Shown here one piece after another: positions 40,239 to 46,933 of a stretch of 64,000 nucleotides of DNA (position 1 is the first letter of the stretch; each line of letters starts with the position of its first letter). A model generated the notes under the pieces. It made no database searches. It saw only the letters and a program-made list of their open reading frames with translations, and had not been told where the DNA came from. The position numbers were made by a program, and so were the translations under genes. Origin of the DNA: an uncultured Oscillospiraceae bacterium (GTDB lineage Bacteria > Bacillota > Clostridia > Oscillospirales > SIG627); the NCBI GenBank assembly GCA_964558655.1, contig CAZLEX010000001.1, positions 15,356-79,355 of the forward strand. The letters run 5' to 3'.

Positions 40239-40994
40239 TTAGTCATTAATCCAGAAAAAATTATTGAGAATTTGACTGTTTAAATTTTCCGGAGATGAAG
40301 TAATCGCAAGTTCGACTAAATATCCTTCATTTTTGAAAACAACATATGTTTGATATAAAACATTTCCGTTAATTTCAGCCGAAATATCCAACGCATCAAC
40401 TTCTCGGTTGCCGATATTTACTTTTTTGTATTCTCCGGTTACATTTTCATAACCAGAATTCACCAAAGCACGCTGTATAATACCGTCTTCAAGATATTCG
40501 GAAATTGAAATGGCTTTGTAATCGTCTGCTGTCATTTTGGTTGTGGAAAGAGTAACATTGTTTAAACCGGTTGCATCGGAAGCATACAAATCACAAACGG
40601 TCTTAATTTTTTCCGCCGCTTCAACAAATTCGTCAAAATCGGTTGCGTCATTCAAACCGTTGAGAATCATAAGATCTTTATCGCTTTTAAAGCTCCATGA
40701 ATCGCTTGCTTTGAATCCAAGACCTAAAAAAGTGTTTTTCCAAGTGTTTCCATCAACATCAGAACAAAGGAAAATGTCTTTTATATCCAAAGAAGAAGTC
40801 TCAATTTCGGTATAGTTGTCATTATCGTCATTATCACCGTCTAAGTCGGAAATATCGTCAATCGGATTTGTCGTTGCCGGTGTTTTATCTGTTGTGGTAG
40901 GATTGTTATTATCGCCCTGTTCTTCTTCTTTGTTGCAGGAAGCAAAACATAAAACGAAAGATAAAACAAGCATTAAAATTAAAAATTTTTTCAT
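40239..40994 (-). CDS. Hypothetical lipoprotein
   Basis: MKK, hydrophobic core, lipobox FAS-C, then a T/D/N-rich linker. Confidence 0.8.
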   Translation of the reverse strand: MKKFLILMLVLSFVLCFASCNKEEEQGDNNNPTTTDKTPATTNPIDDISDLDGDNDDNDNYTEIETSSLDIKDIFLCSDVDGNTWKNTFLGLGFKASDSWSFKSDKDLMILNGLNDATDFDEFVEAAEKIKTVCDLYASDATGLNNVTLSTTKMTADDYKAISISEYLEDGIIQRALVNSGYENVTGEYKKVNIGNREVDALDISAEINGNVLYQTYVVFKNEGYLVELAITSSPENLNSQILNNFFWIND

Positions 40995-41154
40995 AAAATT
41001 CTCCCGTATAGATCTTAAAACTATTCATTTGTTAATGTGAAAAGATATTACACTACATTATAACACAAATAAATAAAATTGACAAGTGCTTTTAAAAAAT
41101 CCGTTATTTTAAACTAAAAAAAAGAAAATTTTTAAGCGAGTTGCCGAAACAGCG

Positions 41155-41184
41155 AAATAAAGGCTTCTCTTGAAGCCTTTATTT
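41155..41184. terminator. Hairpin terminator after the CNNM gene
   Basis: AAATAAAGGCTTC-TCTT-GAAGCCTTTATTT. Confidence 0.7.
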
Positions 41185-41242: not shown

Positions 41243-42517
41243 TTATTCGTTACCTTTGTTTTTTTCTTCCTGATCTTCTTCGGGTTTTTCAAGCAGTTCA
41301 ACGCGAACTAAAGTTACTCGATGAGATTCGCATTTTTCAACTTTAAAAATTGCGAACTCGGACTCATATATGTCACCTTCGTCAGGAACTTTTTCAAGCT
41401 TCTCGGCAAGCCACCCGCCGAGAGAGACACTGTCCGATTCAATTTCACTCAGGTCAAATTTTTCACAAAAGTCGTCTACGGAAACAGTCCCGTCTACAAG
41501 ATATGTTCTTTCGCCTATTTCATTGTATTCTTCGATAACTTCGTCGTGTTCGTCCCAAATATCTCCTACAAGTTCCTCAAGGATATCTTCCATTGTAACT
41601 ATTCCCAAAGTACCGCCGTATTCGTCAAGTACAACGGCTATATGAGATTTTTCTTCCTGAAGCAGTTTGAGCAGATTAGATATTTTCTCTGTTTGATGAA
41701 CGAACAGCGGAGGAGACCAAATATCTTTTATATCACCTTCGTATACGCCGCCGTTTACATAAAAATCTTTTTGATGTATAACTCCGACGATATTGTCTAT
41801 GTTGTCTTCGTAAATAAGAAGCCGTGAAAAACGGGTTTGAGTGAAAGTTTCGGCAATTTCTTCTTTTGTTGCATCTGACGGAAGAGCTTCAAGATCTACT
41901 CTGTGCGTAAGAATTTCTTCGGCACGCTGATCGGTGAATTCAATAACATTTTTCAGAAGTTCTCCTTCATCTGTATCAATACTTCCTTCTTGCTGACCTT
42001 CTTCAACAAGAATGAGCAGTTCTTCCTGAGAGACCCCCTCTTCTTCTTTTGAACCAAATAATTTAAATATTAATTTACGCCACAACGAAAAAAGTGCTGT
42101 TATCGGCATCATGAGTGTCAGAAAAAATTTTAAAATTTGTGCTGTCGACATTGAAAAAGATTCCGAATGAACCCGTGCCAAAGTTTTTGGCGTAATTTCT
42201 CCGAAAACAAGGACTATAACCGTTGCAACAATTGTTGAAACCGTGGCACCGATTTGCTGATTTTTCAAAATATCAACAAAAAGCAATGTAGCAATTGAAG
42301 AAAACAGTATATTGACTATGTTGTTTCCTATAAGAATTGTAGAAATAAGTTTATCGTATTTTTCGGAAAGTTTAAGCACAAGGTCGGCTTTTTTATTCCC
42401 TTTTTCCGCAAGGGCTTTCAGTTTTGTTTTATTAACTGTCGAAAAAGCGGTCTCGGTAGCCGAAAAATAGGCTGACATTACAAGACATACCGCCATAATT
42501 GTTATGTATACTGTCAT
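41243..42517 (-). CDS. HlyC/CorC (CNNM/DUF21 + CBS + CorC) family membrane protein, putative Mg2+/divalent cation transporter
   Basis: SAYFSATETAF, ILIGNNIVNI, VFGEITPKTLA, FSRLLIY, VLDEYGGTLGIVTMEDILEELVGDI. Confidence 0.92.
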   Translation of the reverse strand: MTVYITIMAVCLVMSAYFSATETAFSTVNKTKLKALAEKGNKKADLVLKLSEKYDKLISTILIGNNIVNILFSSIATLLFVDILKNQQIGATVSTIVATVIVLVFGEITPKTLARVHSESFSMSTAQILKFFLTLMMPITALFSLWRKLIFKLFGSKEEEGVSQEELLILVEEGQQEGSIDTDEGELLKNVIEFTDQRAEEILTHRVDLEALPSDATKEEIAETFTQTRFSRLLIYEDNIDNIVGVIHQKDFYVNGGVYEGDIKDIWSPPLFVHQTEKISNLLKLLQEEKSHIAVVLDEYGGTLGIVTMEDILEELVGDIWDEHDEVIEEYNEIGERTYLVDGTVSVDDFCEKFDLSEIESDSVSLGGWLAEKLEKVPDEGDIYESEFAIFKVEKCESHRVTLVRVELLEKPEEDQEEKNKGNE

Positions 42518-42651
42518 GCGAACAAATCCTCCTTAAAAATAGACACAAAAAGGCATACCTGCACACTTCTTGCAAGTGCAGATATGCCAAAATCTATATC
42601 ATTATTAAAAAAGTAAGTATTCGCGTCGGGATCGCAACTGCCACCGTCCAT
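42514..42651 (-). CDS. Putative 45-aa leader peptide (MDGGSCDPDANTYFFNN...), stop overlaps the CNNM start
   Basis: AAGGAGG at 42670-42664; 46-codon open frame; TGA (42516-42514) overlaps ATG 42517 as ATGA. Confidence 0.5.
   Translation of the reverse strand: MDGGSCDPDANTYFFNNDIDFGISALARSVQVCLFVSIFKEDLFA
42547..42588 (-). terminator. Attenuator-type intrinsic terminator in the CNNM leader
   Basis: GGCATATCTGCAC / GTGCAGGTATGCC 13-bp stem followed by TTTTT, upstream of the gene's RBS. Confidence 0.75.
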
Positions 42652-42689
42652 TTTGACTATCATCCTCCTTAAGTAATACAGTTTGTAGA

Positions 42690-42718
42690 ATTATAACAAA
42701 TAAATCTGTGCTTGTCAA
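42690..42718 (-). promoter_or_regulatory. Consensus SigA promoter of the CNNM leader
   Basis: TTGACA (42718-42713), 17 nt, TATAAT (42695-42690). Confidence 0.85.
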
Positions 42719-42791: not shown

Positions 42792-44432
42792 TTATTCGAC
42801 ATTTGCTCCGAACCGTTTTATTTTGCGTGTAGTCGTTTTTTCGAGTGCTTCGCTCAAAATTTCTATTTTTTTAATATGTTTGTAACTCGGTATTTTTTCG
42901 TTAACCGTTTCTATTACGCTTTTTATAATTTTTTCGGTTTCCTCTTTGGAAGGAATGTGCCCTAACTTACTCTGAATATAGTCGAGTTTCGGAAAAATCT
43001 TTGCTTTTATTACTGTGCGTCCGGATTTTTTGTCTTCTACAACAATAACATCGGACACCTCATCGTTCAAAGAAATTCGTCCTTCAAGTTCTTCCGGAAA
43101 TATATTTTTTCCGTTTTCCGAAACGATTACATTTTTAATTCTTCCCTTTATGTACAATTCTCCGTCATTTCCCACGACACCGAGATCCCCTGTATGAAAC
43201 CAACCGTCACGAATAACCGCTTCGGTTGCAGCCGTGTCGTTAAAGTATCCCAGCATAATATTCTCTCCTCGTGCAATTATCTCGCCGACTCCCTCGCTAT
43301 TTGGGCAATCGATTTTTAATTCCACCCCGGGTATAGCAATTCCGGTAGAAAGAGCATTGAAATAAAAATCGCTGTTACCTGCCAAAAGCGGAGAACACTC
43401 TGTAAGACCATATCCTTGAAGAGTTCTAATCCCCAATGCCGTAAAATCATCTACAAGCGAAGTGTCCAATTCGGCAGCTCCGACAATAAAAAGTCTCAAA
43501 TTTCCACCGAGTGTTTTTCTTACTTTGCTCTGTATGATGTTTCTCATGAAGAAAGGAAGTTTTTTCAAACCGTATGCTAACCCGTTTTCCTCAAAATATT
43601 GCTTGTATTTTTGCGGACAGCCGTCAATTACGGACGATTTTATGCGTCTGGAAAGAATAGCAAGCAATTCGGGAACAACAACCAAAACGCTGGGAGAATA
43701 TTCGCGGATACTTCTTGCAATTGTTTGAAGCGATTCCGTATAACAAATACATGCACCGCGTGATAAAATCAAAAGGCAGTTCAATGTACATTCATAAGTA
43801 TGATGTAGCGGCAAAACAGACATTGTTTTGTCGTTATCAAAAATTTTCACAACGCTTACAGTTTGATAAATATTCGAAAGAATGTTATTTTGAGAAAGCA
43901 TTACACCTTTGGAAGAACCTGTTGTTCCCGAAGTAAAAAGGAGGACGCTCATTTCGTCTTTGCTTTTTACAATCATATCTGTTTCTTTTCTTTCGGCAGA
44001 TATATCATTGTCAACAATTTCCGAAAGTTCATCAAAAGATACTCGGTTTAAATTTGCGGAAATTTTTTCGGAAACTTTTAAATCGCAAAAAATCACTTTA
44101 CATTCGGCAAGCATAAAAAAATCTTTAATATCGGTTCCGGCGAGTTCCTTATCAATAGGTACCGCCACTCCTACCGTTGCCGCACAAATATAAGATAATA
44201 CCCATTCGTAACAATTTTTTCCGGAAATTGCGATTTTAGCTCCTTTGTATCCGTTTTTTATAAGATAGGAACACATTTTGTAAAAATGTTCTCTGAATTC
44301 CGAAAAAGTAATTTCACGATATTCGCCATTCTTTAATTTTATCTGAAATGCCTTTCGATTTTTAAATTTTTCGGCAATATAATTTACCATATCGCAAAAG
44401 CTTTCAAATTTTGGAGCGTTATATGTTTTCAT
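42792..44432 (-). CDS. Long-chain fatty acid-CoA ligase (AMP-binding)
   Basis: FTSGTTGSSKGV, LPLHHTYE, QGYGLTECSP, WFHTGDLG, GRIKNVIV..GKNIFPEELE. Confidence 0.92.
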   Translation of the reverse strand: MKTYNAPKFESFCDMVNYIAEKFKNRKAFQIKLKNGEYREITFSEFREHFYKMCSYLIKNGYKGAKIAISGKNCYEWVLSYICAATVGVAVPIDKELAGTDIKDFFMLAECKVIFCDLKVSEKISANLNRVSFDELSEIVDNDISAERKETDMIVKSKDEMSVLLFTSGTTGSSKGVMLSQNNILSNIYQTVSVVKIFDNDKTMSVLPLHHTYECTLNCLLILSRGACICYTESLQTIARSIREYSPSVLVVVPELLAILSRRIKSSVIDGCPQKYKQYFEENGLAYGLKKLPFFMRNIIQSKVRKTLGGNLRLFIVGAAELDTSLVDDFTALGIRTLQGYGLTECSPLLAGNSDFYFNALSTGIAIPGVELKIDCPNSEGVGEIIARGENIMLGYFNDTAATEAVIRDGWFHTGDLGVVGNDGELYIKGRIKNVIVSENGKNIFPEELEGRISLNDEVSDVIVVEDKKSGRTVIKAKIFPKLDYIQSKLGHIPSKEETEKIIKSVIETVNEKIPSYKHIKKIEILSEALEKTTTRKIKRFGANVE

Positions 44433-44748: not shown

Positions 44749-45417
44749 TTATATTTTAAAAGCTTTTTCAACGGGTACAGAACAAACAATTCCCGATGCT
44801 TCCGTCTTTAATCCGAAGTGGGTATTAATTTCATTCATTATGGCATTTGCAATATTGTCGGATGCCAGAATAGAAACAATTTCTTTTTCTTCGGAAAGTT
44901 CCCTCTCATCTGTCATTTTAAGCGATTCGCTTCCCGCAAGTCTGGCTCGAATTACCGTACCGCCTGCTGCTCCGACACGCCTTGCACATTGCATAACTTC
45001 TTCCGTATAACCGGAATTTACCGTAACAAAAATAAGGCTGTGTTTTGTATTATTGTCCATTTTTTCAACTCCTTTATCACTCGAATCGTTCACACGGTTA
45101 AGAATTTCCGAAGTAAGCCTGTTAATTGCAGAAAGAGGCAATATCATCAATATTCCACCGAATTTCGGCGTATATTCCACATCGGTAGAAAAAAGCGATT
45201 CTATTTGCCCGAGAATTTTTTCGGGAGCCAAACTTATAATCACATCTTTATCGTTAGTGCCCAGACCGAAAATATCCATCATTTCCGATGGAGCCGTTCC
45301 CTGTCCGACACTTTGAAAATGCAGTTTTATATTGTTTTTTTCCAGCAATTCAACAAAAGATTTACTCTTGCCTCGCTTTATAAATGTAACAATCATTGCA
45401 ATACGGTTTGTATTCAT
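44749..45417 (-). CDS. P-II-family signal transduction protein (two P-II-like domains)
   Basis: Two repeats with GQGTA and AGGTV..EKEIVSI..GIVCSVPVE; adjacent to DUF1538. Confidence 0.75.
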   Translation of the reverse strand: MNTNRIAMIVTFIKRGKSKSFVELLEKNNIKLHFQSVGQGTAPSEMMDIFGLGTNDKDVIISLAPEKILGQIESLFSTDVEYTPKFGGILMILPLSAINRLTSEILNRVNDSSDKGVEKMDNNTKHSLIFVTVNSGYTEEVMQCARRVGAAGGTVIRARLAGSESLKMTDERELSEEKEIVSILASDNIANAIMNEINTHFGLKTEASGIVCSVPVEKAFKI

Positions 45418-45418
45418 T

Positions 45419-46933
45419 TTACACCTCCGTATAGAAAATCATATCATCGGGTATTTGCAAAAGTTCGCTGTGAGCACGCTTAAGCTGCTTTTGCTGTTTT
45501 ATTTTTCCGACAAGTCCGAGAATTTGAATGGTTATAAGCGGAGTCATCGCAACCATTGCAACAATTCCGAATGCATCGGTAAGTATGTTCCCCTCAAGAG
45601 TTTCACAAGCACCGATAGCAAAAGGCAGAATAAATGTTGTAGTCATAGGACCGCTGGCAACGCCTCCGGAGTCAAACGCTATTCCCGTATAAACAGGAGG
45701 AACAAAAAAAGTTATTATAAGCGAAATCAAGTATCCGCCGACTATAAACGGATAAATAGAAATTCCGGTTACAACCCGAAGCATCGACACTCCGACGGAA
45801 ACGGCAACACCAATCGAAAGTGCAGTGCCAATGGATTTTTGACTTATCGCACCGTTGGTTATCTCTTCGACCTGCTTCTTCAAAGTATGTACCGCAGGCT
45901 CGGCAGATACCACAAAATATCCCATAAGAGCTCCTACCGGTATAAGAATATACTTTGATTCCCCTCTTGCCAATTCCGAACCTATAAGCCTACCTGCCGG
46001 CATAAATCCGACATTCGCGCCTGTCAGAAAAAGCACAAGCCCTAAGTATGTATAAATAAGACCTACGGATATTTTCAAAACCTGATGCATATGAAATTTT
46101 CGGAATATAAGTTCAAAAATTACAAATACTCCTATGATAGGCATAAATGCCACCGCAACTTCCTTTGCATACTCCGGCAACTCACGGACAAAAGCTCCGA
46201 ACGCCTCTTTGGATGTTTCAAAAACACCTATTGTATCCTGTACCGTATTCGAATCTGTTTTAAAGAAAAGACTTAATATAAGAACCGAAAGTATCGGGCC
46301 TATACTGCAAAGTGCAATTAATCCGAAACTGTTTTCCTGTGCACGCTTATCGTTTGAGAGAGACGCCATTCCCGCACCCAAAGCCATAATAAACGGCACC
46401 GTCATAGGACCTGTCGTAACTCCGCCGGAATCGAATGCGGTCGGAATAAAATCGTCAGGTACGAAAAGAGCGAGCACTATGGTTAGTGTGTAAAAAATCC
46501 ACAAAAGTCGTGACAGCGGAATATTTTTCCTTATACGAAACATTGAAAGCATAAGAAACAATCCTACACCGACAGCTACGCAAAAAATGAGAACCGAATT
46601 AGGAATTGAAGGAACCTGTTCGGCAAGCACTTGCAAATCGGGTTCGGCAACGGTTATAAGTGCCCCGAGAATAAAGGAAACTATAAGCGGAATTGCAATT
46701 TTTTTAGATTTTGCAAGCTGGACACCTATATTTTCGCTTAACGGTTGCATAGAAATGTCGGCACCTATTGTAAAAAGACTCATTCCGAAAATTATCATCA
46801 AAGTTCCGAAAAAGAAAAGTACAAGCACACCGGATTGCATGGGTGCGACAGAAATGCTTAAGAGCAACACTATCACAAATATCGGAAGTGAAGAAAGTGC
46901 CGACTCCTTCATCGCTTTTCCAAGTAATTTCAA
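45419..46933 (-). CDS. DUF1538 membrane protein (two fused domains)
   Basis: Paired motifs TVAEPDL / VSAEPAV and AFDSGGVTTGPMT / AFDSGGVASGPMT. Confidence 0.85.
   Translation of the reverse strand: MKLLGKAMKESALSSLPIFVIVLLLSISVAPMQSGVLVLFFFGTLMIIFGMSLFTIGADISMQPLSENIGVQLAKSKKIAIPLIVSFILGALITVAEPDLQVLAEQVPSIPNSVLIFCVAVGVGLFLMLSMFRIRKNIPLSRLLWIFYTLTIVLALFVPDDFIPTAFDSGGVTTGPMTVPFIMALGAGMASLSNDKRAQENSFGLIALCSIGPILSVLILSLFFKTDSNTVQDTIGVFETSKEAFGAFVRELPEYAKEVAVAFMPIIGVFVIFELIFRKFHMHQVLKISVGLIYTYLGLVLFLTGANVGFMPAGRLIGSELARGESKYILIPVGALMGYFVVSAEPAVHTLKKQVEEITNGAISQKSIGTALSIGVAVSVGVSMLRVVTGISIYPFIVGGYLISLIITFFVPPVYTGIAFDSGGVASGPMTTTFILPFAIGACETLEGNILTDAFGIVAMVAMTPLITIQILGLVGKIKQQKQLKRAHSELLQIPDDMIFYTEV

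Follow-up and report, generated by a model that had tools for sequence, protein, structure and literature searches.

The window analysed here is the whole 64,000-nucleotide stretch of contig CAZLEX010000001.1 from an uncultured Oscillospiraceae bacterium (assembly GCA_964558655.1). Its minus strand carries a gene for a 424-aa transporter of the CNNM/CorC family, preceded by a compact leader that comprises a promoter, a Shine-Dalgarno (SD) sequence, a short upstream open reading frame (uORF), a hairpin with a U-tract inside that uORF, and a second SD sequence just ahead of the transporter start (Table 1). An earlier note on this DNA had described the promoter, both AAGGAGG motifs, the 45-codon uORF, the 13-bp hairpin with its U-tract and the ATGA overlap between uORF stop and transporter start, and all of these were found where it had placed them. 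The leader promoter is the single 12/12 match to the promoter consensus between 41000 and 44600, and the hairpin has an 11-nt loop. Another in-frame ATG, at 42663, is unlikely to be the uORF start because it directly abuts the SD sequence. The 191-nt leader folds at −56.3 kcal/mol, with z = −4.3 against dinucleotide shuffles. No second site combining an SD sequence, an acidic/small N-terminus and a terminator was found in the whole 1.68-Mb genome. One candidate, MCECDHDDCECDCEHCHEDK on contig C5, was rejected as the C-terminus of a longer ORF and hence no small gene.

Table 1. Elements of the leader and its transporter gene, with positions in the window (IRD, intrinsic ribosome destabilization)
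Feature	Position	Strand	Basis or remark
−35 hexamer TTGACA	42713..42718	−	consensus 12/12 together with the −10; 17-nt spacer
Extended −10 TGtTATAAT	42690..42698	−	TATAAT at 42695-42690, preceded by TG
uORF SD sequence AAGGAGG	42664..42670	−	sequence
Leader ORF (uORF), 45 codons + TGA	42514..42651	−	ATG 42651, TGA 42516-42514; MDGGSCDPDANTYFFNNDIDFGISALARSVQVCLFVSIFKEDLFA
uORF codons 2-11, DGGSCDPDAN; putative acidic small-residue sensor segment (proposed IRD motif)	42619..42648	−	family consensus
Predicted terminator hairpin, 5′ arm GGCAUAUCUGCAC	42576..42588	−	folding and covariation
Predicted terminator hairpin, 3′ arm GUGCAGGUAUGCC	42552..42564	−	folding and covariation
U-tract UUUUUGUGUCUAUUUUU	42535..42551	−	directly 3′ of the hairpin
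CNNM-gene SD sequence AAGGAGG	42528..42534	−	sequence; pairing predicted
ATGA overlap, uORF stop and CNNM start	42514..42517	−	sequence
CNNM/CorC-family transporter gene, 424 aa	41243..42517	−	Pfam domains

The leader is conserved far above its flanks among relatives whose CNNM proteins are 53–73% identical, being nearly invariant in three congeners despite a CNNM protein identity of 71–73% and still recognisable in three further genera at 53–62%. The promoter, the SD sequence, the ATGGAC start and the hairpin are present in all of these closest relatives. Across seven aligned relatives from four genera the −35 hexamer is kept as TTGAC(A/T), TATAAT and AAGGAG are invariant, and more distant aligned leaders keep an SD-like purine run at the position of the latter; UUUUUG(U/C)GU of the U-tract is likewise invariant in relatives. 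A covariance model was first built from the sequences of seven relatives with the terminator as its sole structure, and a rebuilt model was used for the class-level search. Matches were obtained in 60 of 401 genomes of the window's order, spread over 34 of its 178 genera, and in 33 of 400 genomes of the class Clostridia; three genuine cases lay outside Clostridia. The named genomes matched in an exact-pattern scan were gut and rumen metagenome-assembled genomes labelled Acutalibacteraceae, Oscillospiraceae, Ruminococcaceae, Eubacteriales or Clostridia.

The analysed set comprised 109 distinct leaders, from which subsets were used for ORF and geometry (n = 92), covariation (n = 75) and antiterminator folding (n = 33). 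The unit is genuine and did not come together by accident. All copies share an SD sequence, a uORF starting M-D-x-D-S-S-D-D/E and an intrinsic terminator. The alignment of regions upstream of CNNM genes that the earlier note had proposed bore out both of its expectations, a conserved uORF start (MDxDSSD[D/E], MDGGS in the window) and a covarying hairpin, across Clostridia. The same note had recognised no M-box, yybP-ykoY or fluoride riboswitch consensus in the leader, in agreement with Rfam, which gave no match at gathering thresholds in the whole 64-kb window and merely chance miRNA or snoRNA matches to the leader at E ≤ 10. Searches of five leader peptides against Pfam and NCBIfam found no family, and literature searches turned up no description of such a unit of acidic leader and terminator. 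The best explanation of the leader is a putative transcription attenuator worked by the ribosome, one of a large family without a name that is spread through the class Clostridia.

The uORF starts with ATG, rarely GTG, behind the SD sequence, and in 89 of 92 leaders its frame stays open from the start codon until 10 nt or less before the hairpin, against 51 and 3 of 92 for the other two frames. The N-terminal consensus is M-D-[SGA]-D-S-S-D-[DE], with MDGGSCDPDAN as the window version; residues 2–12 consist of 34.5% Asp, 19% Ser, 9% Asn and 7% Gly, with hardly any Lys, Leu, Ile or Val. Four or more Asp, Glu or Pro occur among residues 2–11 in 90 of the 109 leaders, compared with 28 of 1406 long ORFs of the window genome (2%), and at most one bulky residue occurs there in 97 of the 109, compared with 8 of the 1406 (0.6%). 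Asn is frequent at positions 10–11, and Cys is present in 16–20 of the 92 leaders at each of positions 11–13; the window leader has its Cys at position 6. At the acidic codons GA is kept whereas the third base varies (GAC/GAT/GAA/GAG) and Asp is exchanged for Glu. Distant leaders differ widely in their nucleotides but retain a start rich in Asp, Glu, Ser and Asn (MDTDDSDSDQ, MSEDNSDEDN, MSDDDSDSSN, MDDNSESDEGDP, MSEDNSDEDNDS and MDTDDSDSDQNN). Because GA is kept with third-base wobble, and because distant members keep the type of peptide despite changed nucleotides, the sequences argue that the conserved N-terminus is a coding signature and not an aptamer.

The tail of the peptide is unconserved and the uORF is 15–49 codons long. 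The uORFs pass through the hairpin in each of the three frames, giving GIS...VCLFV in the window, commonly AYL...RYAFLR, and also MPFCV; the frame that gives AYL...[RC][YC]AFL[RC] is used by 32 of the 47 uORFs that read through the hairpin. Selection therefore appears, from this pattern, to act solely on the N-terminus and on the reach of the ORF. Among the 92 copies the uORF stop lies after the hairpin in 42, inside it in 33 and 1–10 nt ahead of the 5′ arm in 17, and never further upstream. The start codon precedes the 5′ arm by a median of 60 nt (interquartile range 55–65), and the median distance to the arm from the end of the last acidic codon, counted within the first 14 residues, is 34 nt (range 15–62 nt). 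With this spacing of stop and acidic codons, a ribosome lost on the acidic run would leave the hairpin free, whereas a ribosome finishing the uORF would cover it. The geometry fits the proposal of the earlier note that the progress of the ribosome through the uORF decides termination.

Covariation in 75 leaders points to the hairpin itself. Compensatory changes occur at 12 of 12 modelled pairs and 92.6% of the cells are paired; none of 500 shuffles reached the observed value for four of five covariation measures, and slid pairing registers collapse in the test. The hairpin, with its invariant U-tract, is by this evidence a selected RNA helix and a predicted intrinsic terminator. In 33 leaders folded with the 3′ arm removed, the 5′ arm paired with varied partners, and no conserved alternative helix that could serve as an antiterminator was found. 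The sole extra helix proposed by RNAalifold was rejected as spurious, since it involves the untranscribed −10 region. The 5′ arms of some leaders carry a constant GG...UGCG. A small hairpin, ACAGU...ACUGU, which pairs codons 4–5 with Asn-Cys codons, recurs in some leaders and is missing in the window leader and in several subfamilies.

The genes behind the leader encode CNNM/CorC proteins in 99 of the 109 cases, namely orthologues of the window gene (at least 45% identity) in 82 and paralogues merely about 30% identical to it in 17. In 8 leaders, which form the MDDADSSDADRSN subfamily (L059, L112, L114, L118, L120, L124, L130 and L150), a P-type ATPase is encoded downstream, and in the remaining 2 the downstream gene is uninformative. 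The ATPase partners score best against the NCBIfam models of PMR1/SERCA Ca2+ pumps (type IIA) and not against MgtA. The leader thus seems to track divalent-cation transporters of two unrelated families, an association that the earlier note did not mention; nor did it single out the acidic, small-residue N-terminus, a motif of the IRD type, as the informative part of the peptide. The 424-aa window protein matches the Pfam families CNNM (DUF21; 6e-53), CBS pair (2e-17) and CorC_HlyC (2.5e-15). Its nearest solved structures are 7m1t/7m1u and 7cfg/7cfh/7cfk, deposited as hemolysins ('Hemolysin, contains CBS domains' for 7m1t/7m1u), together with 4hg0, deposited as magnesium and cobalt efflux protein CorC. 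We take 7m1t/7m1u to be an archaeal CorB Mg2+ transporter, and 7cfg/7cfh are presumably the Thermus CorC Mg2+ transporter. The window gene probably encodes a magnesium exporter. Several CNNM paralogues that lack the leader (among L009, L011, L014, L015, L018, L026, L027 and L030) themselves start with acidic and small residues, such as MDSPGS, MDIDSHS, MDPDS, MDSGGS and MEDGNP, recalling the IRD-prone start of Escherichia coli CorC/YbeX. Their sequences raise the possibility that lineages differ in where an IRD-type motif is carried, some having it on the protein and others on the leader.

The earlier note had also proposed that translation of the transporter gene is coupled to that of the uORF, for which the predicted basis is seen in the window's genus and not across the family. 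The ATGA overlap is confined to the window genome and two others (G015 and G005). The CNNM SD sequence is predicted to pair with about codons 10–15 of the uORF as part of an extended helix around the terminator, and the probability that the CNNM ribosome-binding site (RBS) is unpaired is 0.07–0.32 in four genus-level relatives. Because the CNNM RBS is predicted to be paired with uORF codons and the two genes overlap, translation of the uORF in this genus would also open the RBS and feed CNNM translation through the ATGA. General masking of the RBS by the leader was ruled out: the family-wide median probability of an unpaired main RBS is 0.46 and is the same when the uORF is masked. Masking is predicted in the genus alone. 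Most uORFs of the family end 50–100 nt ahead of the main start.

What the acidic start could do is suggested by work on E. coli, in which elongation aborts stochastically through IRD and does so more often when Mg2+ is low or bL31 is missing (bioRxiv 10.1101/2021.02.02.429294). According to Chadani et al. (bioRxiv 10.1101/2021.02.02.429294), the determinants of IRD are a segment rich in Asp, Glu and Pro, small residues, and an N-terminal position, translated before the nascent chain fills the exit tunnel, and the conserved features of the leader are, by comparison, these published determinants. IRD was demonstrated experimentally for the E. coli CorC/YbeX N-terminus MSDDNSHSSDT, with the proposal that high Mg2+ leads to less abortion and more CorC (bioRxiv 10.1101/2021.02.02.429294). 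High Mg2+ induces both corC and mgpA in Salmonella, by mechanisms that a 2025 study called unclear (PMC12421838).

Given these parallels, it is reasonable to suggest the following scheme. The strong promoter would yield a leader RNA headed by a well-initiated short ORF, whose Asp-rich small-residue codons 2–11, lying straight after the initiator Met, would be prone to IRD, with the intrinsic terminator about 60 nt past the start codon and the uORF reaching or crossing it. At low cation levels the ribosome would abort on the acidic run and leave naked RNA behind the polymerase, so that the hairpin would form and transcription would stop before the transporter gene. With ample Mg2+ or other cations, the stabilised ribosome would trail the polymerase and cover the 5′ arm, the hairpin would not form and the polymerase would read through; the finishing ribosome may instead sit on a stop codon no more than 10 nt from the 5′ arm during synthesis of the 3′ arm and the U-tract by the polymerase. 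An excess of cations would in this way turn on an exporter, CNNM/CorC or, in some relatives, a Ca2+-type P-type ATPase. For efflux by CNNM/CorC, as for a Ca2+ pump, this direction makes physiological sense. That a translated leader gates the terminator is the part of the scheme in which the conservation pattern gives us high confidence. IRD itself, the cue, the polarity and the coupling of transcription to translation are what we infer, and we lean slightly towards accepting that Mg2+ or other cations are sensed through IRD and that the exporter is on at excess. The full proposal, that Clostridia hold a widespread and undescribed set of attenuators with the ribosome as sensor, in which an Asp/Ser-rich leader reads free cytoplasmic Mg2+ or the level of polycations by IRD and masking of the terminator switches on CNNM/CorC and Ca2+-type ATPase exporters, is more tentative, and we regard it as a serious possibility that falls a little short of probable.

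Several observations weigh against this scheme. Ser codons in the motif are 97% AGY, compared with 26% in the downstream genes; single-step interchange among RRY codons, which encode Asp, Gly, Asn and Ser, can account for the bias, and a constraint at the RNA level could also lie behind it. The base of the stem, GGCAUA/UAUGCC followed by UUUUUG, is nearly constant over deep divergence although the uORFs read the hairpin in three frames, which exceeds the need of a plain terminator and points to some further constraint at the nucleotide level. Candidate reasons are a signal for pausing, another peptide module and common descent. As to the substrate, the ATPase partners resemble Ca2+ rather than Mg2+ pumps, and the scores of the window CNNM clade against the NCBIfam models PaeA, GldE and CorC are all under the cut-offs. 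The demonstrations of IRD come from E. coli and eukaryotes rather than from Clostridia. Antitermination by the ribosome requires close coupling of transcription and translation or a pause of the polymerase, and transcription in Bacillus subtilis reportedly outruns translation, as Johnson et al. are said to have described in Nature in 2020, which speaks against easy coupling in Firmicutes.

The same architecture could respond to another cue. The nascent Asp/Cys/Asn chain might bind a metal or a polyamine in the exit tunnel and thereby stall or release the ribosome, or the leader might sense translation capacity, pH or the status of L31. The position of the leader before Ca2+-type ATPases as well as CNNM genes, the Cys and Asn that are frequent towards the end of the conserved segment, and the presence of the polyamine exporter PaeA among CNNM relatives would suit such a reading, which we nevertheless consider unlikely, as the Cys is not invariant, no known arrest-peptide motif or protein family was matched, and the conserved features appear to be exactly those published for IRD. 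It is distinctly improbable that no conditional switch exists at all and that the uORF is a constitutive translational enhancer, a reinitiation device or a small functional acidic peptide, with the hairpin as a leaky terminator or stabilising structure. In the window's genus the overlap of stop and start and the predicted pairing of the CNNM RBS would work without any sensing, but both are missing in most of the family. A functional peptide product is unlikely because the tail is unconserved and read in three frames, and a constitutive enhancer does not explain why a poorly translatable Asp-rich start and a strong covarying terminator are kept over such divergence.

We give very little credence to a sensor at the RNA level, that is, an unrecognised riboswitch or protein-binding site in which the conserved GACAGUAGCGAC run would act as RNA and the open frame would be a by-product. 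The run GAC AGU AGC GAC is strikingly constant within the order, the Ser codons are almost exclusively AGY and the base of the hairpin is kept in sequence, all of which such a sensor would account for; the terminator is, however, the sole conserved structure, with neither an antiterminator nor an Rfam match, and distant members swap nucleotides while keeping acidic and small residues, the ATG, the SD sequence and the open frame. Exchanges of Asp for Glu break the RRY pattern and keep the charge, and the codon bias may have the source named above. A classical amino-acid attenuator, in which ribosomes stalled at Asp or Ser codons would read the supply of charged tRNA, or a nucleoside triphosphate sensor of the pyrBI type, in which the pace of the polymerase over the U-rich stretch would read UTP, is just as hard to credit. 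The run of Asp codons at the start, a U6 run ahead of the hairpin in the window's genus and a terminator inside the leader ORF, as in the pyrBI layout, recall these systems, yet there is no 2:3 antiterminator, Glu replaces Asp, the U-run is not kept in other genera, and the genes downstream encode cation transporters instead of Asp/Ser or pyrimidine enzymes.

The surroundings of the transporter gene add some detail on the transcription unit. About 60 nt past the CNNM stop, a hairpin AAAGGCUUC-AAGA-GAAGCCUUU followed by AUUU (41158–41180, minus strand) is the likely terminator of the CNNM transcript, judging from its sequence. Just beyond it lies a near-perfect extended promoter, TTGTCA-17-TATAAT with TG (11/12; 41057–41085, minus strand), which precedes a 251-aa protein (40239–40994) with a signal- or lipoprotein-like start and without a Pfam match. 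Upstream of the leader, a gene at 42792–44432 (minus strand) encodes an AMP-binding enzyme resembling acyl-CoA synthetases. Some read-through from this gene into the leader is possible, because no convincing terminator was seen in the interval from its stop codon (42792) to the promoter of the leader. Further upstream (44749–46933, minus strand), a gene for a DUF1538 membrane protein of 504 aa is followed, 1 nt on, by one whose 222-aa product matches P-II weakly.

The regulation of Mg2+ efflux in bacteria is largely open, and an attenuator that senses cations by IRD would bear on it in several ways. If the proposal is true, the Mg2+-dependent stability of the ribosome would set the transcription of an exporter in a large part of the gut Clostridia, supplying a missing regulator of Mg2+ efflux in Gram-positive anaerobes, and functional transcription–translation coupling or a programmed pause would be implied in these bacteria. 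The leader would then be a natural example of attenuation by the ribosome in a phylum in which coupling of transcription to translation is held to be poor. Sensing by IRD, so far a matter of the leader of one enterobacterial importer, MgtL, would gain a broad family whose polarity is reversed and whose read-out differs. The unit also combines an unannotated small ORF and a regulatory element overlooked by genome annotation, and could offer a compact candidate for a cation-responsive switch.

Among known systems, the metal riboswitches of Firmicutes, such as the M-box (RF00380), likewise lie in the 5′ leaders of metal transporter genes and include an intrinsic terminator. The Clostridia leader differs in having a translated ORF in place of the aptamer, and none of the known metal riboswitches (M-box, yybP-ykoY, NiCo and others) was matched in Rfam. 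Attenuators of the trp/his type have mutually exclusive antiterminator and terminator helices and a biosynthetic operon; here the 33 leaders folded gave no consistent partner for the 5′ arm, and the genes downstream encode CNNM proteins or ATPases. MgtQ, the uORF between mgtC and mgtB, and YoaL, the leader of mgpA/yoaE, are small ORFs that adjoin Mg2+ transporter genes in Salmonella. The acidic residues D2 and E5 of MgtQ set translation efficiency, and the acidic chains of MgtL and MgtQ control Mg2+ importers. The YoaL ORF extends over sequence just upstream of a gene for Mg2+ protection with a CorC domain, and MgpA is translated less when the YoaL start codon is lost. Unlike the Clostridia leader, to which they are not homologous, MgtQ and YoaL do not work on an intrinsic terminator but through RBS-masking stems that set the initiation of downstream translation.

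The closest likenesses lie with CorC/YbeX, MgtL and pyrBI. E. coli CorC/YbeX shares the run of Asp and small residues right after Met and the tie to a CorC-family gene; the leaders MSDDDSDSSN and MSEDNSDEDNDS are near-identical in style to its start, and the proposed logic, in which high Mg2+ means less abortion and more exporter, would be the same. The E. coli motif lies within the CorC protein and acts on its own translation, whereas the Clostridia motif is on a separate leader ORF, where the terminator would make the decision transcriptional. Like MgtL, the leader of mgtA in E. coli and Salmonella, the Clostridia leader is a short ORF with its own RBS before a cation transporter gene and has a segment of small residues rich in Asp, Glu and Pro within its first ten or so codons. 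The N-terminal acidic/proline motif EPDP of MgtL aborts translation more at low Mg2+, so that in MgtL, as in the model proposed here, the ribosome is the cation sensor and premature transcription termination the read-out. The two have no sequence homology, and the Clostridia leader, with its intrinsic terminator, no alternative pairing found in the leaders folded and no Pfam, NCBIfam or Rfam match, is no homologous member of the MgtL family. In MgtL of enterobacteria, abortion turns an importer on through alternative stem-loops and Rho; in Clostridia, the genes are exporters, abortion should turn them off, and the intrinsic terminator would be masked sterically with no alternative stem found. 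The layout is that of the E. coli pyrBI/pyrE attenuators, in which a terminator inside or at the end of the leader ORF lacks an antiterminator and read-through needs a ribosome close enough behind the polymerase to block the hairpin. In pyrBI/pyrE the variable is the speed of the polymerase, set by UTP-sensitive pausing, and a conserved U-rich pause region precedes pyrimidine genes; here the U-run is limited to the genus, the downstream genes are unrelated transporters, and the variable would be the progress of the ribosome because the conserved element is the nascent peptide. The Clostridia leader belongs to neither family and joins a pyrBI-like layout to what would be MgtL-like sensing.

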